32,000 nt of DNA from Candidatus Saccharimonadota bacterium (GTDB lineage: Bacteria > Patescibacteriota > Saccharimonadia > Saccharimonadales > Saccharimonadaceae). Positions 1,623 through 28,444 of this stretch are shown here, in pieces. The notes under the pieces were generated by a model. The model saw only the letters and a list, made by a program, of their open reading frames with translations, was not told where the DNA came from and made no database searches. The position numbers and the translations under genes are program-made. Position 1 is the stretch's first letter; each line of letters begins with the position of its first letter. Where the stretch lies: contig MKSO01000001.1 of NCBI GenBank assembly GCA_001897305.1, positions 480,001 through 512,000 of the forward strand, in the 5' to 3' direction.

Positions 1623-1637
1623 TGCTATAATAACGGG
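1623..1637 (+). promoter_or_regulatory. extended -10 promoter abutting the ackA start (predicted leaderless)
   Basis: TGcTATAAT (1623-1631), then 6 nt (aacggg), then GTG at 1638. No SD. Confidence 0.5.
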
Positions 1638-2825
1638 GTGATTGAGACGGACTATATACTGAGTATTAATGCTGGATCATCGAGCCTAAAAGTCTCGGTC
1701 GCTCCTTTTATTACGGACACAGACAACAGTGATACAGAGTTGCATTCAGTGACAGTTCCTACGTCAGGTAATTATACCGAGGCACTCGCCCAAGCCGTTT
1801 CTCAATTATCCTTACAAATACCAACCTTCTCCTTGCACAAAGTAAAAGGTATCGGACACCGCATCGTTCATGGCGGCACACAGCAACAGACTGCTCATAT
1901 TATTGATGAAGAGATTATGGCCGATATGCAGCGTTTCGCTCGATTCGACCCAGAACATGCACCCGCAGCTCTAAGTATCATAGCGGTTCTTAAAGAGCGC
2001 CTTCCTGATACGCCACAATTTGCTTGCTTCGATACGGCATTCTTTCACGATATCCCACGCGTAGCTCAACTCACTACCCTGCCTCGACGCTACGAAGCAA
2101 AAGGGCTGCGACGCTACGGCTTCCATGGTATATCGTACGATTATTTGCTAAAAGATATTATTCGCCGCTACCCCGAAGCGTCGCAAGAGAAAATCATCTT
2201 CGCGCACCTTGGCGGCGGCGCTAGTTTGGCGGCTGTCGAGAACGGAAAGCCGGTTGACATGACCATGGGCTTCTCACCAACTTCGGGTATTGTTATGAGT
2301 TCACGAACCGGTAACGTCGATCCTTCTATATTTGGATTCTTGTCTGAACTAGAGGGCATCAGCAGTGATGATTGGACGCGTATTACCAACCACGAATCCG
2401 GCCTATTAGGCATCTCTGAATTATCAAGTGATATGTACACACTTGTTGTCAACGAAGATTCCAACCCACTCGCTAAGGAAGCTATCGACCTCTTCGTCTA
2501 CCAAGTGCAAAAAGCCATTGGTGAATTAAGCGCAGCAATGGGTGGGGTTGATCGCTTGGTATTGTCGGGCGGCATTGGTGAAAAGTCGGCTATTCTTCGC
2601 AGCCGTATCGTTACAAAACTAGGCTATCTTGGTTTTTATATAGACGAAGCGGTCAATCAATCGTTTAATGCCGAGCACTACCCAGAGTCTCGTATTTCTG
2701 ACTGGTCCAATAAACCGATTAACGTCGTAGCGACCGACGAAAACGCCATCATTATTACACACGTTCAGACATTACTAAATCAGTCCGAAGGGCAAACTGG
2801 TTCCGAAGAACATAGGGAGGGATAA
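1638..2825 (+). CDS. ackA: acetate kinase
   Basis: 395 aa. [23 protein letters not shown] and SGGIGE motifs. GTG start. The stop overlaps the xfp ATG (TAATG). Confidence 0.9.
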
Positions 2826-5182
2826 TGGAAACACCACTAACACAAGATGAACTATATCGCATCAACGGCTATTGGAGAGCAGCTAATTACTTAGCCGTTG
2901 GACAAATGTACCTACGGGATAACCCCCTGCTGCGTCGACCGCTTGAATCAGGTGACATTAAAAACATGATCCTTGGGCACTGGGGAACAACACCTGGGCA
3001 AAACTTTATATATGCCCACCTCAACCGCGTTATTAAAAATAACGACCTGAATATGCTCTACATTTCCGGGCCTGGTCATGGTGGCCCAGCTTTGGTTGCC
3101 AATGTATACCTAGAAGGTGTTTTTAGTGAGTACTATCCAGAGATTCCACAAAATGAAGAAGGGATGCGAAAGCTGTTTCAAAGCTTTTCATGGCCGGGCG
3201 GACTCGCAAGCCACGTGTCGCCACAGATCCCAGGTTCTATGCACGAAGGCGGCGAGCTTGGATATTCACTAAGCCACGCATTTGGTGCTGTATTCGACAA
3301 CCCCAGTCTTATTGCAGCTTGTATTGTAGGTGATGGTGAAGCAGAGACGGGTCCACTTGCAACAGCGTGGCATTCTAATAAGTTCCTTGACCCCCAGACA
3401 GATGGCGCCGTCTTGCCTATTCTGCATTTAAATGGCTACAAAATTAGTAACCCTACCCTTTTAGCTCGCATCGAACACGAAGAACTTGAACAGCTACTTC
3501 GAGGCTACGGCTGGAACCCATTCTTTGTAGAAGGCGACGAACCCGAGCGTATGCACCAACTAATGGCTAGTAAAATGGATGAAGCTATTGCCGAAATTAA
3601 ACGCATACAATCGAATGCTCGCAACAATGGCGATACCACACGACCTCGTTGGCCTATGATAGTCCTTCGTTCACCAAAAGGCTGGACGGGGCCTAAAGTA
3701 GTCAACGGCAAGCAAATTGAAGATAATTTCCTTTCACATCAGGTACCTATCCTAGTTGATTCCGCTCACCAAGAAAATATCCCATTACTCGAAGCCTGGA
3801 TGCGTAGCTATAACCATGAAGAACTTTTTGAAGACGACGGGCGACTTAGGGCCGAATTTGCCGAACTAGCGCCAAAAGGCAACCGACGCATGGGAGCAAA
3901 CACCAACGCCAACGGCGGCGAAGCACTTCATGAACTTCACCTACCCGACTTCCGAGACTATGGTATTGAACCACACCGCGGTGCAAGTTCCAGCGAGGGT
4001 AACGTTCATGCCCTTGGCCCTTACTTACGGGACGTTTTGAAGCTAAACCAAGCGAGCAGTAACTTCCGTATTTTCGGCCCGGATGAGCTAGTGTCCAACC
4101 GGCTAGAGGCGGTCTTTGAAGTCGCCAGCAGGCAGTGGAACGCCCGCGTCCGCGAGCATGATGAATTCCTAGCTACAAGCGGCCCTATTCTCGACTCAAT
4201 GCTCAGCGAACACCAGGCACAAGGCTGGCTAGAAGGCTATCTTCTAACGGGTCGACATGGTATTTTACACAGCTACGAGGCGTTCATTCGTATCGTTGAC
4301 TCGATGGTAAATCAGCATGCCAAGTGGATCAAGATGTCCAAAGAGTTATCATGGCGCAAAGACATTCCGTCGCTTAACTACCTGCTCACCTCTCATGTTT
4401 GGCGTCAAGACCACAACGGCTTCACCCACCAAGATCCAGGTTTTATTGACCACCTCATCAACCACAAAGCCGATACGGTACGCGTCTACCTGCCGCCAGA
4501 TGCTAACACGTTACTTTCCGTTATGGACCACTGTTTGCGCAGCCGTAACTATATTAACCTTACCATTACCGGCAAACACGCCGCACCGCAATGGCTCACC
4601 ATGGATCAAGCCATCGAACATTGTACGCGTGGTATTAGTATTTGGGACTGGGCGTCAAACGATAACGGAGAGCCTGACGTCGTCTTGGCTGCAGCCGGTG
4701 ATATACCGACACTAGAGATAATGGCAGCTCGCTCAATTTTGGCTGAACATTTACCCGAGCTAAAAGTACGCGTTATAAACGTTGTCGATCTCATGCGTCT
4801 TCAAGATAAAACCGAACACCCTCACGGTATGAGCTCTCCTGAATACGACGAACTATTCACAAGAGACAAGCCGATCATCTTTGCCTATCACGGCTACCCA
4901 TGGCTGATTCACCGCCTTACCTACCGCCGCAACAACCAACGACTCCACGTTCGCGGCTACAAAGAAGAAGGCACTATTACTACCGCTTTCGATATGACTG
5001 TTCGTAACGATATGGATCGCTTTCATTTGGTGCTCGATGTTATCGAACGCGCCGAGCTTGCTAGTCCAGCCGCACTGAGCCTGAAAACACTCATGCAACA
5101 AAAGTTAGTTGAGCACAGCAATTACATTGTCGAAAATGGCATCGATATGCCCGAGATTGTTAACTGGGAGTGGAAAAGCTAA
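2825..5182 (+). CDS. xfp: xylulose-5-P/fructose-6-P phosphoketolase
   Basis: 785 aa. [31 protein letters not shown] and GDGEAETGP signatures. GGGAGGG SD upstream. Translationally coupled to ackA. Confidence 0.95.
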
Positions 5183-5207
5183 GAATAATTCAACCACGAA
5201 AGTAATT

Positions 5208-5429: not shown

Positions 5430-6065
5430 CTAACTGTAGGCCTTAAATACTGCCTCTTCAGAACTTGCATCGAGCATTTCTAGCAATTCATGCAAAAAAG
5501 GGTATTCAGGGAAACGCTGTTTCAGCTCAGCTATCCATAACGAAGTTCGTTCGTGCAATTTTTCACGATCGTGCGCATTATAGTCATCAAGAAACGTTCC
5601 AGCTGCTCCACTCCAATAATTAATGATTGCCGGAAGTAATTTATCTACAAATCGTACAAAAACAGCCTCTATTTCAGTTTGATTCTCATATCTCTCAAGT
5701 AATTGTGCGGTATACGGTGGTAGTTCATGCACAAGGCGTTGGGTCGCTATTCTTTCGTTTTCTTCTTTCTTCGTGCGGTCTTCTTGGCTAATACCAAACG
5801 TCCATACATCGCCCACATACACCTCAGGGAGATCATGAACAACACTAAACTGCGCCACAAGACCAGCGTCAAGTTCAGGGAAGTAGGTAGCCGCAAGCTC
5901 CGTAGCTGACAAAGCTAGATGAAAGCTGTGCTCTACGTCACTCTCTCGAGTCCCATCAGGCATTCTTGGCGCCCTCGATATACGAGAAAACTTCGTTACA
6001 AGCTCACCGATAAAAAGCATGTAATCATGTGCTTCTTTAACGTCTGAATGAGATGCTCTCGACAT
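5430..6065 (-). CDS. HD-domain phosphohydrolase (YfbR-like 5'-deoxynucleotidase family)
   Basis: 211 aa. H...HD...D metal motif (VEHSFHLA, VVHDLPEVYVGD, FVDKL). Confidence 0.8.
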   Translation of the reverse strand: MSRASHSDVKEAHDYMLFIGELVTKFSRISRAPRMPDGTRESDVEHSFHLALSATELAATYFPELDAGLVAQFSVVHDLPEVYVGDVWTFGISQEDRTKKEENERIATQRLVHELPPYTAQLLERYENQTEIEAVFVRFVDKLLPAIINYWSGAAGTFLDDYNAHDREKLHERTSLWIAELKQRFPEYPFLHELLEMLDASSEEAVFKAYS

Positions 6066-6077
6066 ACATCAATAATA
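6066..6077 (-). promoter_or_regulatory. -10 box abutting the HD-gene start (predicted leaderless)
   Basis: Minus strand reads TATTAT, then tgatgt (6 nt), then ATG. Confidence 0.4.
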
Positions 6078-6285: not shown

Positions 6286-6322
6286 TCAAAGAGCTAAAAC
6301 TTGTGTCTGAAGAACTTAAAAA

Positions 6323-6625
6323 TTACCTGAATATTAAAATAGAAATCGCAATAGAAAACTCGACTATTACATAAAGAATATAGGAGACGATTAGAGGCCT
6401 CATTTTCTTCTTTATTCCATATATCAGCCAAGCTAATGACGAAATAGCTAAGTATCCCCAGGTAATTAAAGAGACGTTCTCCGCACTCCTCGCTGAAATA
6501 ATGCTAATGAGCTAGGGTAATTCAAACAAAGGCGTCGTGAATGCAAAAACATATATAAAATTATCGAATGCCGAGCGTTTTTGCTTTTTGGTAATGTGTT
6601 TGTGTGCTTGAGCGTGTCTAACCAT
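6323..6625 (-). pseudogene. SemiSWEET/PQ-loop sugar transporter with an in-frame TAG
   Basis: MVRHAQAHKHITKKQKRSAFDNFIYVFAFTTPLFELP*LISIISARSAENVSLITWGYLAISSLAWLIYGIKKKMRPLIVSYILYVIVEFSIAISILIFR*. This is a ~100-codon 3-TM layout with W..YG. The TAG at 6512-6514 sits where the Q of the PQ motif belongs. The ORF track shows only the upstream piece (6512..6715). Confidence 0.6.
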
Positions 6626-6668
6626 TAGCATAGTATAGCAAAAAGCCTCTAATGCAGGGACTTTTTTA
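6626..6668 (-). promoter_or_regulatory. terminator-promoter cassette (hairpin, then TTTTTGcTATACT, 6 nt, ATG)
   Basis: Minus strand: AAAAAGTCCCTgcattAGAGGCTTTTTGCTATACTatgctaATG. The hairpin follows the SGNH gene, and its U-tract runs into the extended -10 of the SemiSWEET gene. Confidence 0.45.
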
Positions 6669-6698
6669 TAATAACCATATTGAATAGGGTTAGAACTT

Positions 6699-7226
6699 TT
6701 AATATACAAGTTCACTCATTTTTTGAATAATCTTGTCGTATCCGAGCTTGTTCACATGAAGTCCATCGTCTTCGTGATATTCATCGAGACCCTCAAATAA
6801 TATGTTTGTCTCGATAACCCTGACACCGACTGATTCAAACATATTCTCAACACTGTGATAATAAGTTTTTAAAGAGCTGTTAAATTCATTCATTTGCTCT
6901 TTGTCATGAAGATCAACATCTGGGCATTTAAGCATTATTATTTTAGTTCCACTAAAAGAACTCAGTATCTTCTCTACGTTATCTGCGAATGCATCTATGG
7001 TAATGACATTCTTCCAGGGAGCTACGTCGTTGGCACCAAAAGATAACACTACATATTCTGGATGTAACCTCGATATATATTGAGCACGACTAACAAGATC
7101 TGAAGTATTCCAGCCTCCGGCTGCGCAATTATACACGGTAAAGTTATCTAGTTCATGCTCTAGCTGATCAATTAGATCCTTTCCGAATCTTCCGAGAAAA
7201 CTATCGCCATATAACACCATGTTCAT
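6699..7226 (-). CDS. SGNH/GDSL hydrolase
   Basis: GDS (MNMVLYGDSFLG), GG, GANDV and DGLH blocks. ATG at 7226 is preferred over the track's GTG at 7253 because the -10 box sits 6 nt upstream and the N-terminus is typical. Confidence 0.8.
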   Translation of the reverse strand: MNMVLYGDSFLGRFGKDLIDQLEHELDNFTVYNCAAGGWNTSDLVSRAQYISRLHPEYVVLSFGANDVAPWKNVITIDAFADNVEKILSSFSGTKIIMLKCPDVDLHDKEQMNEFNSSLKTYYHSVENMFESVGVRVIETNILFEGLDEYHEDDGLHVNKLGYDKIIQKMSELVY

Positions 7227-7241
7227 AGGTTTAGTATAACA
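7227..7241 (-). promoter_or_regulatory. extended -10 abutting the SGNH start (predicted leaderless)
   Basis: Minus strand: TGtTATACT, then aaacct (6 nt), then ATG. Confidence 0.5.
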
Positions 7242-7315
7242 AAAACAGACCACAATCTCGTAGTCTACTAAAGCATGTGCTTGATAGCATTCTCTACTGG
7301 ACGAACATAGAACTT

Positions 7316-7783
7316 TTAATCTTTTGCTATATAGCCTAAAACATCAAAATCAGGATGAAAAACTTCTAGCATCTCAAACTTCGGATGAGCTATCTCACGA
7401 ATAAATGGTGACTTACCCAAGTAAGTACTTTTAAATGCATTATAGTCTTCAACCACATAGTCACCACAACCAACCTGTGAGCGATATGGATCTGGCCTCC
7501 TAATACCTATAAGACTTATTCGACTATCATTGATTTCTATTGGCTTTGTTGGCTTAACATAATAGCTTGGTTCAGAAGTGCCGTCATTTTCTCCAATTGT
7601 ATCAATCCACTTTCTAAGGAAAGTATACTCTGCATCATAATGTGCAAATATCTTTAAGGTATCGATGGGTAAGTCGGTTTGAATCGCTACTTTAATAAGC
7701 ATCCCAAGCTGCGCGTTTATATAAAGTAACGCCTCTGAACATTGCTCGTCATTTGTAATAGGACTGAATCGGTACAACTGCAT
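7316..7783 (-). CDS. hypothetical protein (155 aa)
   Basis: Intact ORF with a promoter at its start. There are faint VOC/glyoxalase-like strings (CGDYVVEDYNAF, VFHPDFDVLGYI) but no confident family. Confidence 0.6.
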   Translation of the reverse strand: MQLYRFSPITNDEQCSEALLYINAQLGMLIKVAIQTDLPIDTLKIFAHYDAEYTFLRKWIDTIGENDGTSEPSYYVKPTKPIEINDSRISLIGIRRPDPYRSQVGCGDYVVEDYNAFKSTYLGKSPFIREIAHPKFEMLEVFHPDFDVLGYIAKD

Positions 7784-7829
7784 AGTTATATCATAACAAA
7801 AAGCCTCTAAATTAGAGCTTTTTGTTATG
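7784..7829 (-). promoter_or_regulatory. terminator-promoter cassette: ~18-bp palindrome plus extended -10 abutting the start
   Basis: 7792-7829 reads CATAACAAAAAGCcTCTAaatTAGAGCTTTTTGTTATG, a near-perfect palindrome with one bulge. On the minus strand its 3' arm reads TTTTTGtTATGAT, then ataact (6 nt), then ATG (7783). Confidence 0.5.
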
Positions 7830-7924
7830 CTTAAGTTTGGCTAAAGCAATTGTATAAACTTAGAACTTTATATGATTTCTATGGTTACGCCAAGACCCGA
7901 TGGATCAGAGACAATGCACTAAGA

Positions 7925-9917: not shown

Positions 9918-12566
9918 CTATTTGCGTGACTTTACCTGATCAATAGTTACTCCATCTTTGGGTGAGTAATTAACGGTGACACGAGCACCTTCTTTGAGCT
10001 CTCCCGCAAGCAGTTTACGAGCTAACAAGTTTTCGATCTCGGTTTTGATGAGACGGCGTAGTTCGCGGGCACCAAATTCTGGTTGGTATCCACGCTTCGC
10101 AAGATCATCTACTAGTGCGTCACTAAACGTAATAGATACACCTTTTTCGGCAAGTAGCTGGGCGACTTTTTCGAGCTGCAAACGGACGATGTTTTTAATC
10201 TCGTCTTCATTCAGACTGTCAAAGACGATAATATCGTCGATGCGGTTTATAAACTCCGGACGGAAATGGCCGCGCAGCACTTCCATGAGCTCGGCTTTCA
10301 GCGCCTTTTTATCTTTCTTATCTTTGCCTGTGGCTTTATCGTTTTCGATAATTAGGGCACTACCAAGGTTGCTGGTAGCAATAATAATCGTGTTCGTAAA
10401 ATCCACTACACGACCCTTACCGTCGGTTAACCGACCATCGTCAAAAACTTGCAACAGAATGTTATAAACATCTGGGTGAGCTTTCTCTATTTCGTCAAGC
10501 AAAATGACGCTGTACGGGCGGCGGCGCACTGCTTCAGTGAGCTGGCCACCCTCATCATAGCCGACGTACCCTGGAGGCGCACCGACAAGACGACTAACAG
10601 CATGGCGCTCCATATATTCGCTCATGTCGATACGAATCATAGCATCTTCATTACCAAAGACTGACCAAGCCAAGGCTTTAGCAAGCTCTGTTTTACCAAC
10701 ACCGGTTGGGCCAAGGAAGAGGAAGTTTGCGATTGGACGATAACCCTGTGTCAGTCCAGCACGCGACAAACGAACCGCGTCGCTCACTGCCTGAACGGCT
10801 TCGTTTTGACCAACAACCCGTTGGTGAATCTTATCTTCAAGTGTTAATAGCTTTTGCTTCTCTTCTTCGGTGAGCTCAGTGACCGGCACACCGGTGAGTT
10901 TGCTAACAACCTGGGCGATGTCAGCACTAGTGACTACGGCTGTCGAAACACCTTTCTCGCGCTTCCAAGCTTCCATTAACTCATCTTTTTGCTTTGTCAG
11001 AGTCTCAATTTCTTTTTTCAGTTTCTCGGCTTCATCGGTTTTCTTGTGATTGCGAGCTGACTCTTCTTCGCGCGAAAGACGGGCAATATCATCTTCGTAT
11101 TTAGCAATTTCGGCTGAGCGTGTATCGCTGGCAATGCGTACGCGAGCTGCCGCTTGGTCAATCAAGTCAATGGCTTTATCAGGTAGGAACCGAGATGTAA
11201 TATAACGATCACTCAAATGAACGGCGGCAGTGACGGCTGAATCATCAATCTTAACTTTGTGATGGGCTTCATAGCTGTCGCGGAGGCCGCGAATGATCTC
11301 AATCGCTTGCTCAATCGTCGGCTCTGGCACCATAACGGGCTGGAACCGTCGCTCGAGAGCACTATCCTTTTCGATATATTTTTGATATTCATTCAAGGTT
11401 GTTGCCCCGATAAGATGCAGCTCGCCACGGGCGAGCGCCGGCTTCATGATGTTGCTGACATCCATGCCGCCCTCAGAACCGCCGCCACCCGCACCTACCA
11501 TAGTATGCACCTCGTCCACAAACACGATTAACTCGTCTTTGTGCTCGACGATCTCATCGATGACAGCCTTAATACGCTCCTCGAATTCACCCTTATATTT
11601 GGCTCCAGCAATCACACTCATAAGTGAAAGTTCAACGACGCGTTTACCCTCAAGCACCTCAGGTACTTCTTTTGCTTCAATTCGCTGCGCCAAGCCTTCG
11701 ACGATAGCAGTTTTACCGACGCCTGGCTCACCAATCAGCAAGGGGTTGTTTTTGGTGCGGCGACTTAAAATTTCGATAGTCGTTTGAATTTCATCGTTTC
11801 GGCCAATTACTGGGTCAAGTTTACCAGCCTTGGCAAGTTGCGTCAGGTCGCGCGAGTATTTATCGAGCTGTGGTGTGTTCGTCTGAGTTTCAACCTTACC
11901 ACCCTCAGCTCCTTGCCCGACCACTTTGGTTGTTTTGGCGCGGAGACTTTCAGGACTCAAGCCGTACTTTTCGAGCACTTCGTGTGCCAGGCCGTCAGGC
12001 TCGGCGGCAAGTGCAATCAAAAGGTGCTCTGGGCCGATGTAGCTGTGGCCGAGTTCGCGCGAAATTTGGTAGGCGCTTTGCAGTACGCTTTTAACACGCG
12101 GGCTGACACCCATCTCATCTTCAGTAGTAGTTTGCTTACCTTTTGGCGCATTAGCATCAATATAACCCTTAATGTCACTCGGTTTCAGCTTGTATTGCTT
12201 GAGGATTTCAGCAATGACGTCGTTGTCAGCGAGGGCATAAAGCAAGTGCTCAGTATCTACCTCCCTCCGGCCGAATTTGTGCGCCACACTACCGGCTTCT
12301 TGGATAATATCCTTGGCAGTGTCGGACAAGAGTGCTTCAAGGCCTGCAGCCTGTTGTCGCTCGGGGCGGGCAAAGGCTTGCTCAAAAGAATTGAATGGGT
12401 TACTGCCAGAAAATAATGACTCGAATGGTGAACTTGAGCCAGCTTGTTGCCGTAGCCTTTGGTAGTCAATGTCACAGACATTTAGTTCGGCCACCTGGCC
12501 ATTTTGCGTGACTTGCACTCGATGAGTGACTGGTCTGATGCCGCATATGTCACAAAGTTCATTCAT
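9918..12566 (-). CDS. clpC: ClpC-type AAA+ chaperone/unfoldase with an N-terminal Cys-containing extension
   Basis: 882 aa. Two Walker A sites ([16 protein letters not shown]), Clp_N repeats and a short coiled-coil middle domain. AGGAG SD upstream. Confidence 0.9.
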
Positions 12567-12592
12567 GTAAGGTCTCCTATTACATTACATCT

Positions 12593-12598
12593 ACTATA
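12593..12598 (-). promoter_or_regulatory. clpC -10 box (TATAGT)
   Basis: Minus strand: TTGTATgtcaaatgcaaagtagTATAGT...AGGAGaccttacATG. Confidence 0.4.
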
Positions 12599-12610
12599 CT
12601 ACTTTGCATT

Positions 12611-12983: not shown

Positions 12984-13301
12984 TTGGTGAGTTCGCTCGG
13001 CGTGGCAGTTTGCACATACAACTTCACACTTTGCGATTTCTTGGTCTATTTTAACACGACTGTTGAAATTTACTAAATTCGCCAGTGAATACTTCTTATC
13101 CCGTAAATGGTCAAACTGCATAACGTAGTAAGGATATCGTATTCCGCAATCGGCACACGGCTTATCTTTTTGCTCTCGTAAATATATCCTCATGCGTTGT
13201 TTTGCTAACACGGCATTATCAATATACCTTTGTCTATTTTTCAAGTAATGCTTCTTCTTACTTAAAAATTGCCGAGGGTCATTAGGATCTTTATAAGCCA
13301 T
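12957..13301 (-). CDS. HNH endonuclease (free-standing)
   Basis: 114 aa. CADCG...QFDH...N...CANCH layout. AT-rich. The last 27 nt overlap the tRNA-Trp 5' portion. Confidence 0.75.
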   Translation of the reverse strand: MAYKDPNDPRQFLSKKKHYLKNRQRYIDNAVLAKQRMRIYLREQKDKPCADCGIRYPYYVMQFDHLRDKKYSLANLVNFNSRVKIDQEIAKCEVVCANCHAERTHQRGLVHRLE

Positions 13302-13313
13302 GCTTCCATTATG
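13302..13313 (-). promoter_or_regulatory. -10 box abutting the HNH start (predicted leaderless)
   Basis: Minus strand: CATAAT, then ggaagc (6 nt), then ATG. Confidence 0.35.
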
Positions 13314-14585: not shown

Positions 14586-15508
14586 AAGCGAATACGCCGC
14601 AGTATCATGTAGATGATAACAACCAGCAATACACTAAAGCCGGTAATAGCGGCATAGGCCCATGATTCATGCGAAAATGGCAATATAACGTTCATACCAA
14701 ACATACCAAAGAAGACATTTGGCAATGCCACTAGTAGCGTAAGAACCGTCAGCTTTTTCATGCGTTGGTTAAGCGTATTATTACTAATAGTGGTATAGGC
14801 ATTACGAATACTATCGATGGTACTACGGTGGCTGCCTGTCGCTACCAAAAGCTGATTCAAGTGAAGCACCATATCCTCAATGAACTCGCAGTCCTTGTCG
14901 TTAAAAATATCGTGCTTATTTTCGCGCAGGCGGGCCATCAAAGCTTGCAAAGCAGTCAGGTTGGTGTGATATTCGTTAATATCGTGTTCAACCGTTACAA
15001 ATTGAATAAAGTCATTGTTGTCCACTTCATGGGTGCGTAAGCGCTGCTCGGTATTGCGAATATAGTCACCGGTGGCATGAATAAAAGCTTCGTATTGCCC
15101 AATAACATGGTTAGTAAGCTGCAAAAATACATGCTTGGTACTTTTCATGTCGACTTTGACAGATTCGAACAACTCACTTGGCTGGACATACTCTTTTGTA
15201 GAAAGCGTAATAAGCACAGAGCCTTTCAACACAGCTAAAAAGGGCGTCGAAGCAATATTACCGCGTGAAGCCTGGTGGGGCGAGCGAATAAATACATACA
15301 GGTTGCCCTGACTATACTCGGCGCGTGGTAACTCATTAACGTCTTTGACATCTTTAACAATGCCCGGGTCTAGGCCATACAGATCAGTTACATGCGCTAA
15401 GTCTGTGTCGTTTACTTTTGCCCCATATACCCATCCACGCTCGGTGGGGGCATCATGAACCTGTTAGGGGTCTTCGTTAAACGATTTTTTAGCATAATAA
15501 TGTAACAT
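14582..15508 (-). pseudogene. corA: CorA-family Mg2+/Co2+ transporter with an in-frame TAA at codon 15
   Basis: The frame is continuous from ATG 15508 to TAG 14582 (309 codons, the usual CorA length) except for TAA at 15464-15466: MLHYYAKKSFNEDP*QVHDAPTERGWVYGAKVNDTDLAHVTDLYGLDPGIVKDV...FGMFGMNV (GMN motif) plus 2 C-terminal TMs. There is no ATG/GTG/TTG between the TAA and the track's GTG at 15232. Confidence 0.7.
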
Positions 15509-15597
15509 ACATAAGCAGTATACTCTATATATTTTATGAATAACAATGGTTTCTGTGGAGAACTCTTTGCTTGGGATTATTTTAAGCGTAAGAAGTG

Positions 15598-15626: not shown

Positions 15627-15704
15627 CGGGACAGAACCCAAAGAGGCAAAAAATAAAAGGAGAAAACGACGCGCTTCCACATAAGCAGCTCGTAGCCGGG
15701 AGTT

Positions 15705-21448: not shown

Positions 21449-21465
21449 AATTTCAAACAAAAAAA

Positions 21466-22354: not shown

Positions 22355-22624
22355 CTATTTCTTACGAGGCTTGCTCGATGGTACTTCAAGGCTAGGCACT
22401 ACAAACGTACGAATAATAGCCGTCATAACGCCATTAGCTATAAATGTTAGACCGGCAATAAAAGCAAAGAATAGAATAGTTTGACCTAAGTTGTAGTTAA
22501 TAAGGCTTACAATACCGGCGAGCAAAAACAACGCAACCGCTAATACAATATAGCCAGCCTGTTGTTTAGTAAACGCATCGGAACGCTTGTTCCAAGCCTG
22601 TAAAGATTTCTTAAACTCTTGCAT
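22355..22624 (-). CDS. small membrane protein (89 aa, 2 TM)
   Basis: MQEFKKSLQAWNKRSDAF... followed by two hydrophobic spans and a basic tail. ATG 22624 is preferred because a consensus extended -10 lies 6 nt upstream. Confidence 0.6.
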   Translation of the reverse strand: MQEFKKSLQAWNKRSDAFTKQQAGYIVLAVALFLLAGIVSLINYNLGQTILFFAFIAGLTFIANGVMTAIIRTFVVPSLEVPSSKPRKK

Positions 22625-22639
22625 ATTTATATTATAGCA
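22625..22639 (-). promoter_or_regulatory. consensus extended -10 abutting the start (predicted leaderless)
   Basis: Minus strand: TGcTATAAT, then ataaat (6 nt), then ATG. Confidence 0.5.
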
Positions 22640-22668: not shown

Positions 22669-23988
22669 CTATTTATCATATAGGTCAAGCACCACCAGGT
22701 GCTCAATATGTGGTGTGTGAGGAAAGAAATTGTAGCCCTTATGATGCTTTATGCCATAGGCAGTAGTCAGCAGGGCAACATCACGGGCTTGTGTCACCGG
22801 GTTGCATGACAAATAGATAATACGTGGTGGCTTTTCTTCGAGGAGTCGCTCTATGACGGCTTCGTGTAGCCCGGCTCGGGGTGGGTCTACAATGATAGTC
22901 TTCCCGGATGTAATATATTCGAGTGCCTGTTCGCTCGCCGCTAACACAGGCGTCGCCTTTTTACCCAACAATTCAACATTTCGCTGCATTTCTCGCACGG
23001 CGTGTTCGTTAATCTCCACCAGAGTAACATCATCGCCGCCAATCGTTAGGCCAATCGAACCAACACCGCTATACAAATCAACTACCGGCTTACCTTCTTC
23101 AACCCAACCGGCCATGTCGCGTAGTGCTTGTTCATAAACGGGCAGATTTACCTGGAAGAAGCCTTCTGTTGCGTAACGAAAAGGCACACCTAAAATCGTA
23201 TCAGTCAGGGTTGTTTCACCTACAGCTAAGATTCGCCGTGTAATGACACTGGCCGGAGATTTAGGGTTGCTGTAAATGACTTCACCACCCAAAGCACTAA
23301 ACTGCATAGCCTCCTGCTCATTCATAAAAGGAAGCTCATCATCTTTTATGTACAACTGCCACACACATTCGTGCTGAGCGTTGCACCGTATTAGTAATGT
23401 TTTAAGCGACCGAGCCTGTACGCCTTTTGCCTGGAGGAAATCACGAATTTCATGCGCCAGTCGCACCATTTCTTCGGGCAATAGGGCGCTGTCTTCTAAT
23501 GGGACCTTCCCCTTGCTGCCCCGCCGAAAAAAGGCCAAGTCAAGTTTGTCGGTATCAGTGCTATTTTCATTTACAGTATTGCTATACCAGCTAAATTCTA
23601 CCTTATTACGGTAATGATACTCATGGCCATCGGTATACACTTCGATTGGGTTGGGTAAAACGATATCGTGTAGCTCGAAAGCTTCTTCAATTAAGGCCGC
23701 CTTGTAGCGCCGTTCGGTGGTCATGGGCATAATTTGCCAAGGACTGGTCGATAGATAGCTTTCGGCGTCGCGTGGTTCAATGCGTTCCGGGCTCGCTTTT
23801 AGCACTTCTTTTACAAAGCCTTCCGCGTACGAAGCCTTTTTCTTTGTTAGCTGTACGCGAACTTGCTCATCGGGCAAACCACCCCAGACAAACACTTTAC
23901 GGCCATCTTCAAGCGTACCCAAAGCCTGCCCGCCACCAACAATTTTTTCGAGCGTTATAACAACTTCGGGTAAAGATTTTTTAGACAT
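22669..23988 (-). CDS. RumA/TrmA-family RNA (uracil-5-)-methyltransferase with a TRAM domain
   Basis: 439 aa. TRAM-like N-terminus, VVDLYSGVGSIGL SAM motif, VDPPRAGL and YLSCNP. Confidence 0.85.
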   Translation of the reverse strand: MSKKSLPEVVITLEKIVGGGQALGTLEDGRKVFVWGGLPDEQVRVQLTKKKASYAEGFVKEVLKASPERIEPRDAESYLSTSPWQIMPMTTERRYKAALIEEAFELHDIVLPNPIEVYTDGHEYHYRNKVEFSWYSNTVNENSTDTDKLDLAFFRRGSKGKVPLEDSALLPEEMVRLAHEIRDFLQAKGVQARSLKTLLIRCNAQHECVWQLYIKDDELPFMNEQEAMQFSALGGEVIYSNPKSPASVITRRILAVGETTLTDTILGVPFRYATEGFFQVNLPVYEQALRDMAGWVEEGKPVVDLYSGVGSIGLTIGGDDVTLVEINEHAVREMQRNVELLGKKATPVLAASEQALEYITSGKTIIVDPPRAGLHEAVIERLLEEKPPRIIYLSCNPVTQARDVALLTTAYGIKHHKGYNFFPHTPHIEHLVVLDLYDK

Positions 23989-24060
23989 CTGTATTAGTAT
24001 ATACTTTTTTAGCTTTCACCTCTAGCATGAGCCGTAAAATATGATAAAATAGAACATGTC

Positions 24061-24298: not shown

Positions 24299-24970
24299 CT
24301 ACATCACCACGCGTCGTGGTTGTTTCACCCGGTTTTGACTTTGCGGAATAATCATTTTAGCAGCTCGCTCACGCAAACTAAGAGCCAAGTCAGTATCACC
24401 GATACGGTCGTAAGCATCCGCCAAAATAGTCAGCGTCTGTGGAATAGGGTCTAGTTCAACCGCTTTTTCAAGCGCTTCAATCATGCGTTTGTTATTGCCT
24501 AGCTTTTCTTGCACTTTCGCGTAAGCTATGTGACGGGCGGCGTGCTCGCTATCCATAGCCAGAGCCTGTTCAAAGGCAAGCGCAGCCTTATCGTAGTTTT
24601 GCGTTTCGAAGTAAATGAGGCCGACGTTATGGAGGCTACTGGCACTTGGCTCAAGGCTTTGGGCAATTTCAAAACACTCAATTGCCTCTTTAAATTGCTG
24701 CTGCTTGGCGTATAAAATACCTAAACGGTTATAGGCGCTGGCGTTGCGTTCATCGACACGCAAAATAGTCAGCAGCGCTTTTTCGGCCCGTAGATACTTA
24801 CGATCCTGTAATGAGGTCTGAGCAATGGACCACAGTTGATCCAATTTATCAGATAATTTCGAAGAAAGATCACTAGCCACTTCACCAACCGTTTGTTTTT
24901 GGTAAAGCGCCCAGATACCTAAAATAGCAATAACAACAAGACCTAGCATGTTCTTATTAGTATACCACAA
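24299..24970 (-). CDS. TPR-repeat protein with an N-terminal membrane anchor
   Basis: 223 aa. One TM (LGLVVIAILGIWALY) followed by several TPR-like repeats (A..YN.LG..Y). The start is uncertain: TTG 24970 or ATG 24949. Confidence 0.7.
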   Translation of the reverse strand: MWYTNKNMLGLVVIAILGIWALYQKQTVGEVASDLSSKLSDKLDQLWSIAQTSLQDRKYLRAEKALLTILRVDERNASAYNRLGILYAKQQQFKEAIECFEIAQSLEPSASSLHNVGLIYFETQNYDKAALAFEQALAMDSEHAARHIAYAKVQEKLGNNKRMIEALEKAVELDPIPQTLTILADAYDRIGDTDLALSLRERAAKMIIPQSQNRVKQPRRVVM

Positions 24971-24975
24971 ACACG

Positions 24976-25809
24976 TTATGTAGCGACAGCCACTGCACTC
25001 AACTGCAAGCGTACGTTGCCTTGTTCGCTAATACGGCGGTGTGCCTGCTCGAAACGCTCTAACACGCGCAAAGAGCTTTCCGAACCTTTTTCGGCTACCG
25101 TTCTTCGCAGGAGTTTCATGGCGTCCTCTAGAAGCAACAGTGCTGTACTGCGGTCATCCTTGTATTTTTTAGCCAAAAGTAGCTTTTGATAAGAAGATTC
25201 GCTTAATAATGAACGCGCATCTTTAATAATGGCAACCCTTGATGCAAAGTAGTCGCTATCCTTAATAAGCCGTATAAGCTCAGCTGGGCGTCCGCTAGCG
25301 ATAAAGAGGAGCTGCGTGCGAATTGTTGGGTCGTTCACGGCGTATTCATCAAGCAGTGCTTCAGACTGCTGGGGGGATATAGGTCGGATATCAACCCTTT
25401 GAGAACGTGAGGTAATTGTCGGCAAAAGAAGTTCCGGTTTATGGCTTAATAGCACAAACGTCGTGCCAGCAATGGGTTCTTCGAGTAACTTTAGAAAGGC
25501 ATTTTGAGCCGGAATAGCCATCCGCTCCGCATAATCAATTACAATCACCCGACCTTTTGGCTCAATGGTTTTAGTACTATCGTACAGGCGACGAATACTA
25601 TCAACGGTAATCGTCCCAGCCACAAGATCAACCGTATCATTTTTTTCTGGCAATACTACCCAAACAGTAGGGGCAATATCGTTGGCGTACGCCTTACCAA
25701 TTGTCGATAGACCAATACCCTCTGGACCAGTAAGTAACAGTGCGTGCGGAGCTGCTTTGCGGATGCTCTGTAATTCTCGCTCAGATTGGGCATTGATATA
25801 CAGGGTCAC
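24976..25809 (-). CDS. holB: DNA polymerase III delta' subunit-like AAA+ protein
   Basis: 277 aa. LLLTGPEGIGLST P-loop-like segment and SRSQ sensor. GTG start overlaps the upstream stop (GTGA). Confidence 0.75.
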   Translation of the reverse strand: MTLYINAQSERELQSIRKAAPHALLLTGPEGIGLSTIGKAYANDIAPTVWVVLPEKNDTVDLVAGTITVDSIRRLYDSTKTIEPKGRVIVIDYAERMAIPAQNAFLKLLEEPIAGTTFVLLSHKPELLLPTITSRSQRVDIRPISPQQSEALLDEYAVNDPTIRTQLLFIASGRPAELIRLIKDSDYFASRVAIIKDARSLLSESSYQKLLLAKKYKDDRSTALLLLEDAMKLLRRTVAEKGSESSLRVLERFEQAHRRISEQGNVRLQLSAVAVAT

Positions 25810-26972
25810 TGCACCATTTCCTCGAATAGCGATGGCACCGGTGCTGTGAAAGTATGACGGTGAGAACCCGGCAAGGTAAGCTCTAGGCTATGAGCATGAA
25901 GACATAAGCGAGGTGCCGATTGTGCCGAACCGTATACCCTATCACCTGCAATAGGAGTATGGATATACTGCATGTGAACACGTAGTTGGTGGGTGCGTCC
26001 AGTTTTAGGACGAAGCTCAACCAGTGTTTGCTTGCCATTTGATGACATAACCTCATACGAAGTAAGAGCTGGCTTACCTTTTGGATCAACCCTAAAAGTA
26101 CTGGGCGCCGAAGGATTTCGAGCAATCGGCACGTCTATAATAGCCTTTTCAAGCTTTGGCACACCGTCAACGACGGCCGTATAGTGCTTTTTGACTGTAC
26201 GATCAGCAAATTGCTTCTTTAATAGCGCGGCCGCTTCGTCAGTACGAGCACCGATAATAACTCCGCTGGTATCACGGTCTAGGCGGTGAACGATGCCCGG
26301 GCGGTTAGTTGTAATACCAAATGTAGTATACCGACGGAAGAAATCTGCAACGGTAAACTCGTCATTCATTACTCCCTTACTGTGGGTGAGCACTCCGGCT
26401 GGTTTATTTACGACAATCACATTGTCGTCGATGTACAAAATAGGCAATGTATCACCAGAGGTGTCTTGCTTCTCTGGGAGGGTCAGGGCTATTGTTGCCA
26501 TATCACTAACATCAGTACTGGCTTTAGTGACCGTTTCACCAGCTACCTGAACGTAGCCGGCTTTAATATACTTTTGAATGGTAGAGCGTGATAAATCAGG
26601 GTAACGAGCAGCCAGCTCTTTATCAAGGCGAACAAAGGTTGGCTCAACTTGAAATAAGTACGTATCACGAAATTTATGTCGTATACCGAAAGTAATAAAA
26701 TCGTTTTCACGAGGGTTGCGTAAAAAACGGCCTTTTAGGCCTGGACGACCAGAGCTAAGAATTTCTTGCAAAGGCACTGTGTCATCATCGATCGTGTTAT
26801 CTATGATCGCTAAATACACGGCATTATCAAACTGAATGGTCAGCTGGCGCGTAGCAGCCCTGAGTGACGTCTCTTTGACAGATTCAATATCGGCTGAGGT
26901 ATGTACTTCACCAGCAACCTCAAAGTCACGGAGAATTGCTAAAGCTTCACGTTTTAGGTTTTTTGTTGCCAT
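25806..26972 (-). CDS. RluA-family pseudouridine synthase with an S4 domain and a ~110-aa N-terminal extension
   Basis: HRLDRDTSGVII catalytic motif, S4-like LSRSTIQKYIKAGYVQV. TGA stop. Confidence 0.85.
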   Translation of the reverse strand: MATKNLKREALAILRDFEVAGEVHTSADIESVKETSLRAATRQLTIQFDNAVYLAIIDNTIDDDTVPLQEILSSGRPGLKGRFLRNPRENDFITFGIRHKFRDTYLFQVEPTFVRLDKELAARYPDLSRSTIQKYIKAGYVQVAGETVTKASTDVSDMATIALTLPEKQDTSGDTLPILYIDDNVIVVNKPAGVLTHSKGVMNDEFTVADFFRRYTTFGITTNRPGIVHRLDRDTSGVIIGARTDEAAALLKKQFADRTVKKHYTAVVDGVPKLEKAIIDVPIARNPSAPSTFRVDPKGKPALTSYEVMSSNGKQTLVELRPKTGRTHQLRVHMQYIHTPIAGDRVYGSAQSAPRLCLHAHSLELTLPGSHRHTFTAPVPSLFEEMVQ

Positions 26973-27067
26973 ATAGCCTTATTATACCTTAAAGCACTCG
27001 AAACACCGCACTGCCAACACCTTACATACATTCTTATATAATTGACTTTTTAATGTAAATATGATAA

Positions 27068-27079
27068 TATAATACTATA
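27068..27079 (+). promoter_or_regulatory. -10 box abutting the FHA-PP2C start (predicted leaderless)
   Basis: TATAAT (27068-27073), then actata (6 nt), then ATG 27080. TTGACT lies upstream at 27042-27047. Confidence 0.5.
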
Positions 27080-28444
27080 ATGACTTCGTTTAACGAGCGT
27101 GAAGGTGCGGACCCTATCCAAGCTACCCAGCAGCGCCTTCTTAATGATGCTTCGTCCGCAGAATGGCGGCGTATGGCACCTGGCTTTGTCGAACAGACCC
27201 AATTAGACGGCCGCTTGCCTCTATTTATAAATCTTGGACGAAGAGTTCTCTCTTCTGTGGCAGAGCCAGAGATGCTTGCTATTATCAACCCAGCGATACA
27301 CCTTTCAACTACGGAAAGGATAGGTCTTAACCCTGACGTTTCAACACTTCTTATTCAACCTTCTTCATTTAATCCTCTTACCGAACGCGGATACAAAGCG
27401 CTACGACCTGGCGACACCTTCGTCTTAGGGCGTCGATACAATACCGCCCCTTATTTAAAGCGTTTTTCAGACTTTGGCACACCCGTTTCAAGACATCATC
27501 TTGAAATAGGCTTAGGCGAAGACGGTTTAATATCACTCCAGGATCTTGGCTCAACCAATGGGTCATACATAGGAGAAAAGCCATACACTCCTTTATCCCC
27601 TTTTGCAGAAACCCCATCCATAAGCCAAGAGTTTCAAACCACACTCGAGATTAGTTCCCACGCACACTCAATTGCCTCGGAAAGACACCCTTTGCGAAAC
27701 GAGGACGCCTTTTTCCGCGACGATGAAACGCAGGTATATGGCGTCTTTGACGGCGTGAGTGAAGGCGGAGGTGGCGATAGGGCGTCAGCAATTGCCGCTT
27801 CTATACTAGAAGCCGAGTCCGCCTCCTTACCATCATCAGCTTCACCTAGGGAAATGGGTGTATACATGAAAGCTATACTACAAAAAGCAAACGCTGCCAT
27901 CCTCGAGCAACGTCACACCCCATCTATGGGCTCAACCGCAGTCATCTTGAAAGTACATACCAGCCGAGACGGCAAAAGCCGCATTGCTACTATAGCCTCC
28001 TCGGGTGATAGCCGAGCCTATATTTTTCGAGACGGAAGACTAGGGGCTATAACAACCGATCATGATGCCTACCGTGCCAGTCACGACAAAGAAGATTCTA
28101 AAATTCACCAAGAGAAACTCGCGGCTACGGAATCAATTAAGGCCCTGGTCGATGAAAGAGATCAGATGGATTTTAATTTCCGAAACCTTATTTCATCAAA
28201 ACTCGGTATGCAAAATGTGCCCATGGATATTGAATATGCCGTTATTGAACCGGGCGATATTCTCGTTCTTTCGACAGACGGCGTACACGACAACTTAAGT
28301 ACTGAAGAAATCCGAAGAATACTCCTAGGTGCTCGAAAAGGCAAAGCAGCCGAAGACTTAGTGTCATTCGCCAAGCGTCGCTCGTTAGACGCGCATGATC
28401 GCGCCAAACCCGACGACATGACAGCGCTTGTTGTCGAGCTGTAG
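27080..28444 (+). CDS. FHA-domain / PP2C Ser/Thr phosphatase fusion protein
   Basis: 454 aa. FHA: GRRYN...VSRHHLEI...LQDLGSTNGSYI. PP2C: NEDAF...GVFDGVSEGGGG, STDGVHDNL, DDMTALVV. Confidence 0.85.
   Translation: MTSFNEREGADPIQATQQRLLNDASSAEWRRMAPGFVEQTQLDGRLPLFINLGRRVLSSVAEPEMLAIINPAIHLSTTERIGLNPDVSTLLIQPSSFNPLTERGYKALRPGDTFVLGRRYNTAPYLKRFSDFGTPVSRHHLEIGLGEDGLISLQDLGSTNGSYIGEKPYTPLSPFAETPSISQEFQTTLEISSHAHSIASERHPLRNEDAFFRDDETQVYGVFDGVSEGGGGDRASAIAASILEAESASLPSSASPREMGVYMKAILQKANAAILEQRHTPSMGSTAVILKVHTSRDGKSRIATIASSGDSRAYIFRDGRLGAITTDHDAYRASHDKEDSKIHQEKLAATESIKALVDERDQMDFNFRNLISSKLGMQNVPMDIEYAVIEPGDILVLSTDGVHDNLSTEEIRRILLGARKGKAAEDLVSFAKRRSLDAHDRAKPDDMTALVVEL

Follow-up and report, generated by a model that had tools for sequence, protein, structure and literature searches.

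Probable extended -10 promoters at start codons point to leaderless mRNAs alongside Shine-Dalgarno-led genes in Candidatus Saccharibacteria

In a stretch of 32,000 nucleotides from a member of Candidatus Saccharibacteria (TM7, Saccharimonadales), referred to here as the window, several start codons are located directly behind a hexamer resembling a -10 box, while other genes are preceded by Shine-Dalgarno (SD) sequences. This raises the question whether the hexamers are promoters at which the mRNA would begin with the start codon, so that these genes would be translated without a leader. The gene identities in the window agreed with Pfam wherever a family exists, and the relatives of xfp were all found in Saccharibacteria. 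The same genome is also present in public assemblies. Related Saccharimonadales DNA of ~2.4 Mb in total, consisting of a first set of 1.37 Mb and a replication set of 1.0 Mb, was surveyed in addition to the window.

The original prediction listed eight genes with a -10 box, exactly 6 nt and then the start codon. All eight strings were found letter for letter where they had been placed, and the spacing was correct in 8 of 8; the hexamer of the HNH gene, CATAAT, does not conform to TANNNT, however. Each of the eight genes is either divergent or separated from the gene upstream by at least 45 nt, and before none of them was an SD 4-mer identified. TANNNT was identified at spacer 6 in 7 of the 32 gene starts of the window, whereas other spacers averaged 0.97 (P = 4e-5 in a binomial test; 1.7e-3 when corrected for the 41 spacers considered), and TGnTANNNT in 5 of the 32 (P = 7e-10). 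At other short spacers, TANNNT was present at one start at 7 nt and at two starts at 8 nt. A PWM was trained on the relatives only and then applied to the 3,197 start triplets of the window, where ranks 1 to 5 were taken by five of the predicted starts. TGn is carried by five of the eight sites; the HNH, HD and FHA-PP2C sites are devoid of the extension and scored within the top 1% only.

The first rank was obtained for the gene of an 89-aa membrane protein (22622..22639, ATG at 22624, reverse strand; TGcTATAAT, 6 nt, ATG), for which TGaTATAAT-attagt-ATG and TGcTATAAT-atagta-ATG were found in the orthologues L166 and L168, respectively. It is followed by the SGNH/GDSL hydrolase gene at rank 2 (7224..7241, ATG at 7226, reverse strand; TGtTATACT, 6 nt, ATG), where a hairpin at 7269-7244 with its T-run extends into the -10 box and overlaps an upstream GTG. 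For ackA, at rank 3 (1623..1640, GTG at 1638, forward strand; TGcTATAAT, 6 nt, GTG), TANNNT was found 5-7 nt before an in-frame start in 28 of 56 orthologous upstream regions; 19 of these 28 have exactly 6 nt, 17 are TG-extended and 18 use GTG. The hyp155 gene, at rank 4 (7781..7798, ATG at 7783, reverse strand; TGtTATGAT, 6 nt, ATG), has four orthologues in unrelated genomic contexts, all with TGnTATNNT followed by 6, 6, 8 and 6 nt and ATG. The SemiSWEET-like gene, at rank 5 (6623..6640, ATG at 6625, reverse strand; TGcTATACT, 6 nt, ATG), codes for a product with no Pfam match, and its reading frame is interrupted by an in-frame TAG at 6512-6514. Lower ranks were obtained for the HD-domain gene (rank 16; 6063..6077, ATG at 6065, reverse strand; TATTAT, 6 nt, ATG), with TGcTATCAT-6-ATG, TGcTATTAT-6-ATG and TATACT-8-ATG in orthologues, and for the gene of the FHA-PP2C phosphatase (rank 25; 27068..27082, ATG at 27080, forward strand; TATAAT, 6 nt, ATG), with TATAAT-tatata-ATG in the L168 orthologue. 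For the HNH gene with its weak hexamer (13299..13313, ATG at 13301, reverse strand; CATAAT, 6 nt, ATG), only one orthologue was found (L057, 66% identity), in which the ATG is preceded as TAAAAT-aagatc-ATG.

Three longer spacers that had also been proposed held on checking. The RumA-like methyltransferase gene (23986..24001, ATG at 23988, reverse strand; PWM rank 19) has TATACT, 7 nt and ATG, and a -10 hexamer was found 6-8 nt before the ATG in 11 of 11 orthologues, eight of them at 7 nt. The gene of the RluA-family pseudouridine synthase (26970..26986, ATG at 26972, reverse strand) has TATAAT, 8 nt and ATG, which is kept in the close relative L168 as TATAAT-aaatctat-ATG; an upstream AAGG, an SD 4-mer, is absent from L168. 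More distant RluA orthologues are operon-internal or SD-leadered, and 0 of 51 are of the leaderless type. In corA (15506..15522, ATG at 15508, reverse strand; TATACT, 8 nt, ATG), the hexamer was paired with TTGTTA at 18-nt spacing in a promoter scan. The frame of corA contains an in-frame TAA at codon 15 in the window (15464-15466); the orthologues in L166 and L168 are intact, code for 308 aa and have an identical TATACT-gcttatgt-ATG. Two more short-spacer cases, absent from the original list, were identified with TPR and pyrD. The gene of the TPR protein (24947..24967, ATG at 24949, reverse strand) has TGgTATACT, 9 nt and ATG, with an expected leader of ~2-3 nt, and a -10 hexamer lies 7-9 nt before the ATG in 46 of 48 orthologues, 43 of which are TG-extended. 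For pyrD, a weak case (1551..1568, ATG at 1553, reverse strand; TACACT, 9 nt, ATG), a -10-like hexamer was found 6-9 nt before the start in 7 of 9 orthologues. The spacers of 8-9 nt in RluA, corA, TPR and pyrD would imply leaders that are very short, but not zero.

A histogram of the distance from hexamer to start, which the original prediction had suggested as its check, was computed on the relatives and showed a peak at 6-7 nt. In this annotation-free analysis, distances were counted from -10-like hexamers to ATGs opening long ORFs. For near-consensus -10 hexamers in the 1.37 Mb set, 100 cases were found at offset 6, 67 at offset 7 and 37 at offset 8, over a background of ~12; for TGnTANNNT in the same set, 96 were found at offset 6 and 51 at offset 7, over a background of ~8. 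The peak was reproduced on the other 1.0 Mb. Control hexamers of the same composition gave a flat distribution, except for a small bump of TTATAA at 7-8 nt, which is attributed to its overlap with TATAAT. The matches at offset 6 comprise 178 distinct protein families, compared with ~50 in the background, so that repeated counting of orthologues does not account for the signal. In the relatives, TANNNT was present 6-7 nt before a candidate start in 369 of 1,122 genes, with ~96 expected. In third-party gene calls, 32 of 174 starts in the relatives had the hexamer at exactly 6 nt, versus ~5 at other spacings, and 6 of 43 versus ~1.3 in the same genome, where the sample is small (51 kb, ~45 genes). 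For ackA, HD, hyp155, the membrane protein, FHA-PP2C, HNH, RumA and TPR, the spacing is kept among orthologues, whereas the letters between hexamer and start drift. In this genome and its relatives, the share of genes with a -10 box 6-7 bases before the start is about a fifth to a quarter.

The logo of the clade, TnTGnTATAAT, shows T (0.58) at -17, T (0.60) at -15 and G (0.60) at -14, and, behind the TATAAT core, A at -6, C or T at -1 and a purine at +1. None of these positions was imposed by the search; together they correspond to a promoter of the extended -10 type, in which the start context, Y(-1)R(+1), is canonical. No recognisable -35 element was present in the clade logo. A generic -35/-10 scan was only weakly above shuffled sequences (~1.3-1.8 sd) and recovered almost none of the sites, as expected if the -35 element is dispensable; the sites are without support from any independent promoter caller. 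In 49 bacteria, the distance from the -10 element to the mapped transcription starts is centred on 7 bp (PMC12641261), and this distance, together with the Y(-1)R(+1) context, predicts a transcript start at the start codon. It is thus likely that these genes have extended -10 promoters with transcription starting at the start codon, giving rise to leaderless mRNAs alongside SD-led genes. The hexamers would be -10 elements of the housekeeping sigma factor, mostly of the extended type, and the usual transcription start, the seventh base after the hexamer, would be the first letter (A or G) of the start codon. With a spacer of 6 nt, the mRNA would carry no 5' leader, and with spacers of 7-9 nt a leader of 1-3 nt, in neither case with an SD sequence, so that the ribosome would have to initiate on a 5'-terminal AUG or GUG. 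We infer both the 5' end at the start codon and the leaderless translation.

The promoters might also be real while transcription starts a few bases upstream, giving short leaders, or downstream of the ATG, with use of a later in-frame start; strict leaderless translation would then fail for all of the genes or for a part of them. Spacers in the range of 7-9 nt are indeed common and conserved (9 nt for TPR, 8 nt for RluA and corA), and overlapping alternative -10 candidates at FHA-PP2C and the membrane protein would yield leaders of 2-9 nt; at FHA-PP2C, TGaTAATAT is located 9 nt upstream and paired with TTGACT at 17-nt spacing. However, leaders of 0-5 nt contain no SD sequence, and mRNAs with such leaders usually still count as leaderless, and the preference for a pyrimidine at -1 and a purine at +1 is centred on the start codon. 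In addition, the lengths of homologues match the motif-adjacent ATG for the membrane protein (89-93 aa in 7 of 7 homologues), for hyp155 (homologues of full length) and for the HD gene (~205-231 aa). This bears on the claim that the motif helps to choose start codons for the membrane protein, SGNH and SemiSWEET genes. The claim was borne out for the membrane protein, by its homologue lengths and by orthologues keeping TGnTATAAT-6-ATG, and for SGNH indirectly: in the 184-aa ORF, the Pfam GDSL matches start at residues 22-27, at profile positions 17-26, so that a longer N-terminus could hardly be accommodated, the 175-aa product of one public gene call starts at the predicted ATG, and the hairpin covers the upstream GTG. 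For starts inferred from RNA-seq in N. lyticus, the distance to the -10 element was more variable (PMC12641261), but the largest and sharpest peak in the relatives lies at exactly 6 nt, which corresponds to the modal geometry of -10 element and transcription start (PMC12641261). An offset start is therefore considered improbable.

The SD sequences reported for xfp, clpC, GH15, rpoA and rpmG were all as described. The xfp gene, with AGGGAGGG, 4 nt and ATG (2814..2827, forward strand), lies inside an operon, with an ATG that overlaps the stop codon of ackA; clpC, with AGGAG, 7 nt and ATG (12564..12578, reverse strand), has a leader of ~20 nt from a TATAGT promoter. In the relatives, SD motifs show a distance peak at 5-9 nt and rarely occur together with the -10 signal (SD in 10 of 100 divergent genes of the leaderless type). 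Among genes that are divergent or preceded by a gap of at least 13 nt, 24-33% have the -10 signal, compared with 4%, the background level, where the gap is at most 12 nt; 42% of the latter genes have an SD sequence. This distribution bears on an alternative view, in which the mRNAs are leadered and come from promoters farther upstream, and the TA-rich hexamer acts in translation, as a non-SD ribosome-binding element or an unstructured A/U-rich one, like in the Bacteroidota-type group B. The genes have no SD sequence and are A/T-rich ahead of the start, and non-SD motifs near starts are described for other phyla in PMC6028130, but such a signal should also precede operon-internal genes. A group B ribosome-binding motif was rejected, since the motif is at background frequency before operon-internal genes (gap of at most 12 nt), and operon-internal RluA orthologues were negative throughout; among the orthologue sets used as negative controls, holB (4 of 59) and GT4 (4 of 26) also had few members of the leaderless type. 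Furthermore, TG at -15/-14, T at -17 and the invariant T-A---T pattern are contacted by the sigma factor of RNA polymerase and not by the ribosome, terminator-like hairpins with T-runs are located directly upstream of several -10 boxes and merge into them, and the control hexamers gave no comparable peak. A translational signal is thus quite improbable. That the pattern arose by chance from A/T-rich intergenic DNA and motif-fitted start choice is hardly credible, although three of the eight starts (SGNH, SemiSWEET and the membrane protein) were picked with the motif in view and TANNNT is loose enough to match 1.9% of window positions, because this is contradicted by the P values within the window, by the top ranks from an independently trained PWM, by histograms peaking at 6 nt both annotation-free and on third-party annotation, and by the geometry kept in orthologues.

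The architecture of leaderless-type promoters matches group C of GeneMarkS-2 and is not new to biology. Start codons located at the 5' end of the mRNA behind such a promoter are well known in Actinobacteria and Deinococcus. The defining feature of group C is a -10 box that precedes the start codon by 6-8 nt, and the group consists of bacteria in which leaderless transcription is frequent, mainly Actinobacteria and Deinococcus-Thermus (PMC6028130). Like here, a Pribnow box precedes the start of first operon genes by 6-8 nt, and SD sites at similar distances serve the other genes. The predicted share of leaderless operons in group C, ~25-50%, is comparable with the 24-33% determined here (PMC6028130). 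In the text of that paper, Actinobacteria and Deinococcus-Thermus are named together with a few members of Proteobacteria and Firmicutes, and neither Saccharibacteria nor CPR are mentioned. No literature report of the leaderless arrangement was found for the phylum of Saccharibacteria.

In mycobacteria, both ATG and GTG 5' ends serve leaderless initiation, and GTG is used here by ackA and 18 of its orthologues. The mycobacterial -10 logo is plain TANNNT, in genomes of high G+C content with no prominent TRTG-type extension, whereas the promoter here is mostly TG-extended. Both share the TANNNT element, a weak or absent -35 element and a similar proportion of leaderless(-type) genes; in M. tuberculosis and M. 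smegmatis, about a quarter or more of the transcripts begin at the start codon (PMC3898074; Shell 2015, as cited in PMC6028130), with starts that were mapped experimentally there and are predicted from sequence here. For Deinococcus-Thermus, a -10 motif adjacent to ORFs, present at ~30% of ORFs, was shown to be a promoter for leaderless mRNAs and to require a specific distance to the start codon (PMC12340547), similar to the -10 region directly upstream of the ORF at a fixed distance described here. Function was demonstrated there by reporters, qPCR and dRNA-seq (PMC12340547; for D. deserti, de Groot 2014, as cited in PMC6028130), while the present evidence is from sequence analysis. The system described here also belongs to another phylum and to a reduced genome of ~1 Mb. 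The mRNAs of Firmicutes normally have a leader and depend strongly on an SD sequence, whereas here a promoter of a type known from Firmicutes abuts the start codon. With the TRTG-type extended -10 promoters that PMC12641261 describes for Firmicutes, it shares T at -17, TG at -15/-14, a TATAAT core and a dispensable -35 element.

Leaderless-type promoters beside SD-led genes, as originally predicted, are thus in agreement with every sequence test that was run, namely histogram, logo, context and orthologues. In these organisms, the leaderless mode would serve first or sole genes of transcription units, at about 24-33% of the genes with room for a promoter of their own, while operon-internal genes and many highly expressed genes, like xfp, clpC, rpoA and those for ribosomal proteins, would rely on SD-dependent initiation.

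At eight gene starts, the original prediction had placed a -10 hexamer exactly 6 nt before the start codon. All eight strings were found exactly as quoted, at ackA (start codon at 1638, + strand), the HD gene (6065, -), the SemiSWEET-like gene (6625, -), the SGNH gene (7226, -), hyp155 (7783, -), the HNH gene (13301, -), the gene for the 89-aa membrane protein (22624, -) and FHA-PP2C (27080, +). The three cases with a longer spacer between hexamer and start codon were also upheld (RumA, TATACT-7-ATG; RluA, TATAAT-8-ATG; corA, TATACT-8-ATG), and the Shine-Dalgarno (SD) sequences quoted for other genes are present in the window. TPR (TGgTATACT-9-ATG) and pyrD (TACACT-9-ATG), both absent from the original list, also fall into this class of short spacers, and just left of the window the same genome has an additional candidate, a GT2 gene with TATACT-7-ATG. 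The HNH hexamer, CATAAT, is weak, and overlapping alternative -10 candidates exist at FHA-PP2C and at the membrane protein. The -10 pattern TANNNT was present at a spacer of exactly 6 nt in 7 of the window's 32 gene starts, compared to a mean of 0.97 genes at the other spacers from 0 to 40 (P = 4e-5; 1.7e-3 when corrected for 41 spacers), and the TG-extended form, TGnTANNNT, was present at this spacer in 5 of 32 (P = 7e-10). A generic scan for -35/-10 promoters and terminators gave promoter-like sites weakly above shuffled sequences and missed most of the predicted sites, because these have no -35 element; this result is uninformative and does not contradict a promoter reading.

The starts of SGNH, SemiSWEET and the membrane protein had been picked with the help of the motif, and tests independent of start choice were therefore sought. 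In related Saccharimonadales genomes totalling 1.37 Mb (L001-L080), all -10-like hexamers were located, and ATGs opening ORFs of at least 100 codons were counted d bases downstream of them, using no annotation. For near-consensus hexamers, 100, 67 and 37 such ATGs were found at d = 6, 7 and 8, over a background of about 12, and for TGnTANNNT the counts were 96 and 51 at d = 6 and 7, over a background of about 8. The peak at 6-7 nt expected from the original prediction is thus present in the relatives without recourse to gene calls. Control hexamers of equal base composition (TAATAT, ATTATA, AATATT) gave a flat histogram with no peak, and TTATAA gave a small bump at 7-8 nt which was attributed to its overlap with TATAAT. 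SD motifs in the relatives peaked at 5-9 nt. Metagenome contigs amounting to an independent 1.0 Mb gave the same result, and the matches at d = 6 were spread over 178 distinct protein families, compared to about 50 at background offsets, which makes the signal independent of orthology. With third-party gene calls, TANNNT was identified at spacer 6 in 32 of 174 genes from the loci of nine relatives, compared to about 5 at other spacers, and in 6 of 43 genes of the same genome, compared to about 1.3. A weight matrix trained on the relatives only was also used to score all 3,197 ATG, GTG and TTG triplets of the window. The first five ranks were taken, in this order, by the membrane protein, SGNH, ackA, hyp155 and SemiSWEET, followed by the clpC promoter at rank 6; HD, RumA and FHA-PP2C were ranked 16, 19 and 25.

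The nature of the signal is seen from a logo conditioned only on T-A---T at spacer 6. At the positions left free, the hexamer showed T at -10 and A at both -9 and -8, and it was followed by A at -6; upstream it was extended by TG at -15/-14 (0.60 each) and T at -17 (0.58). A pyrimidine preceded the start codon at -1 (0.74), the +1 base was A or G, and at -35 there was no signal. These features are those of an extended -10 promoter of the TRTG type, whose canonical Y(-1)R(+1) start context falls on the start codon. Whether a gene carries the signal depends on room for a promoter: it was present in 24-33% of the genes which are divergent from their neighbour or have an upstream spacer of at least 13 nt, and in only 4% of the genes that follow the end of their upstream neighbour by 12 nt or less, 42% of which carry an SD. 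Co-occurrence of the -10-type signal and an SD was almost nil. At several sites, terminator-like hairpins were identified directly upstream, among them hyp155, SGNH and SemiSWEET (hairpins and T-tracts fused to the extended -10 box at 7798-7830, 7241-7269 and 6640-6670, all -; for example GGCTTTTTGTTATGAT) and YajQ in the relative L166 (upstream of 10457). The T-tract of these hairpins continues into the TG of the -10 box, so that read-through from upstream is unlikely, and the two T residues that the logo shows at -17 and -15 may double as a terminator tail. The whole unit of terminator, promoter and start codon takes up about 40 nt.

In the best-supported reading of the mechanism, the extended -10 element would be recognised by the housekeeping sigma factor without the need for a -35 element. 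At a spacer of 6 nt, transcription would begin with the A or G of the start codon, and at spacers of 7-9 nt, 1-3 nt upstream of it. In 49 bacteria, mapped starts are centred 7 bp past the -10 element (PMC12641261), which at a 6-nt spacer would be the first base of the start codon. These two steps are supported by sequence statistics and geometry. The resulting mRNA would be devoid of an SD, and the ribosome would initiate on the 5'-terminal start codon, as suggested by analogy to the leaderless mRNAs of Mycobacterium and Deinococcus (PMC3898074, PMC12340547, PMC6028130). The motif genes are likely to be leaderless or near-leaderless transcription units.

In orthologues the spacing is preserved, while the spacer sequence drifts. 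GTDB representative genomes (L001-L080) showed no synteny downstream of xfp and were unusable for the orthologues of HD, SGNH, SemiSWEET and hyp155, a problem solved by protein searches and contig look-ups. The signal was found in 28 of 56 ackA orthologues (exactly 6 nt in 19, TG-extended in 17, GTG in 18), in all 11 RumA orthologues, mostly at 7 nt, and in 46 of 48 TPR orthologues, 43 of them TG-extended, with spacers of 7-9 nt. Four hyp155 orthologues in unrelated neighbourhoods have TGnTATNNT with spacers of 6, 6, 8 and 6 nt. Spacers are 6, 6 and 8 nt in HD orthologues and 6 and 6 nt in those of the membrane protein, for which 7 of 7 homologues are 89-93 aa long. Single orthologues have TATAAT-tatata-ATG for FHA-PP2C and TAAAAT-6-ATG for HNH, and two intact corA orthologues have TATACT-8-ATG. 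The negative controls came out as expected, with the signal in 0 of 51 RluA, 4 of 59 holB and 4 of 26 GT4 orthologues. In most relatives RluA is operon-internal, or leadered with AAAGGAG, and it is the first gene of its unit with TATAAT-8-ATG only in this genome and one close relative. Its leaderless-type arrangement is therefore recent, which makes the orthologue set a negative control, and it follows that the initiation mode of one gene can switch as gene order changes. In the RluA-family protein itself (25806-26972, -), the S4 domain is preceded by about 110 aa of N-terminal extension, conserved in relatives with 46-70% identity.

The gene names of the original prediction were confirmed by Pfam scans for ackA, xfp, the HD_3 hydrolase, the GDSL/SGNH hydrolase, clpC, CorA, GT4, GH57, GH15, the RumA-like methyltransferase, the RluA-family synthase, FHA-PP2C and the cluster rpsM-rpsK-rpsD-rpoA-rplQ-rplM-rpsI. 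Among 185,579 species genomes searched, the nearest relatives of xfp are all from Candidatus Saccharibacteria/Saccharimonadales, with at most 83% amino-acid identity. The window sequence is 100% identical in several public assemblies with contigs of 0.9-1.3 Mb, by which the same-genome sample was extended to 51 kb. An Rfam scan of the window gave three tRNAs and nothing else, so that the leadered genes are not explained by known leader RNAs. The 3' end of the HNH ORF (12909-13301, -) overlaps tRNA-Trp (12909-12983) by 27 nt.

Several sequence elements were observed near the starts. Between the divergent genes pyrD and ackA, a perfect palindrome, TGTGATCTATATCACA (1590-1605), fits the TGTGA-N6-TCACA consensus of the CRP/FNR type; the extended -10 box of ackA follows about 18 nt downstream of it, and it may be an operator controlling ackA-xfp. 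Sites like TGTGA..TCACA were identified upstream of ackA or pyrD in L001, L002, L007 and L027, and a Crp-family regulator gene in the relative L173. Downstream of the clpC promoter, TATAGT (12580-12601, -), and separated from it by 7 nt, ATG-TAA forms a minimal start-stop ORF where the leader is predicted to begin, just before the AGGAG of clpC. A leader of about 50 nt is conserved in front of the glycogen-synthase-like GT4 (~15645-15704, +), with AAAATAAAAGGAG followed by a hairpin and then by GGGGT-ATG. It is common to more than 20 relatives (including L057, L088-L090, L100-L104, L112, L116 and L128), has no Rfam match and may act as a regulatory element of the 5' UTR. The NUDIX gene is directly preceded by a tRNA 3'-end-like sequence, GGTTCAAGCCCCGATCGTGGCTCCA (~21461-21500, -), which is kept in L090 and L168; it received no ARAGORN or Rfam call and may represent a fragment of a tRNA or tmRNA, or else an integration site.

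Some genes of the window seem to be disrupted. In corA (14582-15508, -), which starts with ATG at 15508, an in-frame TAA is present at codon 15 (15464-15466), where the orthologue in L168 has CAG (Gln); the frame is otherwise intact, orthologues are 308 aa long, and a frameshift was ruled out by orthologue alignment. The SemiSWEET-like gene (6319-6625, -) has an in-frame TAG (6512-6514) at the expected Q of the PQ-loop motif (FELP*LISI), identical in 4 of 4 public assemblies of this genome, after which the frame is open for 62 more codons. Within 32 kb, two transporter genes thus have an in-frame stop in the place of a Gln. Reassignment of TAG and TAA to Gln, considered for both, was rejected as the simplest reading, since these codons terminate 27 of 31 window genes and a change from CAG to TAG or from CAA to TAA is a single transition; the SemiSWEET-like gene is probably a CAG-to-TAG pseudogene. 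Two adjacent ORFs at 7925-9514 (-), coding for 267 aa (with the N-terminal half of a GT2 domain) and 240 aa of membrane protein, resemble a single family-2 glycosyltransferase interrupted by a gap of 63 nt, which may be a third disrupted gene.

The mechanism itself is not new. The same architecture, with a -10 box 6-8 nt before the start codon, defines group C of GeneMarkS-2 (PMC6028130), and was experimentally established in Actinobacteria and Deinococcus-Thermus (PMC6028130, PMC12340547). A full-text literature search found no paper tying leaderless mRNA to Saccharibacteria, Patescibacteria or the Candidate Phyla Radiation (CPR), and the text of a TM7x transcriptome preprint deals with neither transcription starts nor UTRs. 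For N. lyticus, 188 starts inferred from RNA-seq were used in a 2025 promoter survey, which does not comment on leaders (PMC12641261).

The value of the finding is practical. On identical DNA (L081-L084, the same genome), public pipelines assign different starts to HD (211, 196 or 177 aa), ackA (395 or 358), hyp155 (155 or 128), SGNH (175 or 173) and GT2 (267 or 254). Conflicts of this kind are resolved by the rule of a -10 box plus 6 nt, which is therefore of direct use in annotating CPR metagenome-assembled genomes. The promoter consensus for design is TnTGnTATAAT without a -35 element, and for the Saccharibacteria genetic systems under construction, cassettes can be designed without a leader and without a ribosome binding site.

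The evolutionary interest is moderate. As a tentative proposal, leaderless initiation from TRTG-type extended -10 promoters that lack a -35 element may be ancestral and pervasive in Saccharibacteria, and possibly in the wider CPR, serving about a quarter of the transcription units; the fusion of terminator T-tract, -10 box and start codon into some 25 nt would be a way of compacting the genome. If true, this would be a phylum trait so far unreported, would connect the CPR with Actinobacteria and Deinococcus-Thermus, the leaderless-rich Terrabacteria, and may be related to the pared-down CPR ribosome. With these likely leaderless genes, the range of leaderless-rich bacteria now reaches an ultrasmall, reduced-genome episymbiont phylum, which bears on the question whether leaderless initiation is ancestral or was repeatedly selected during genome reduction.
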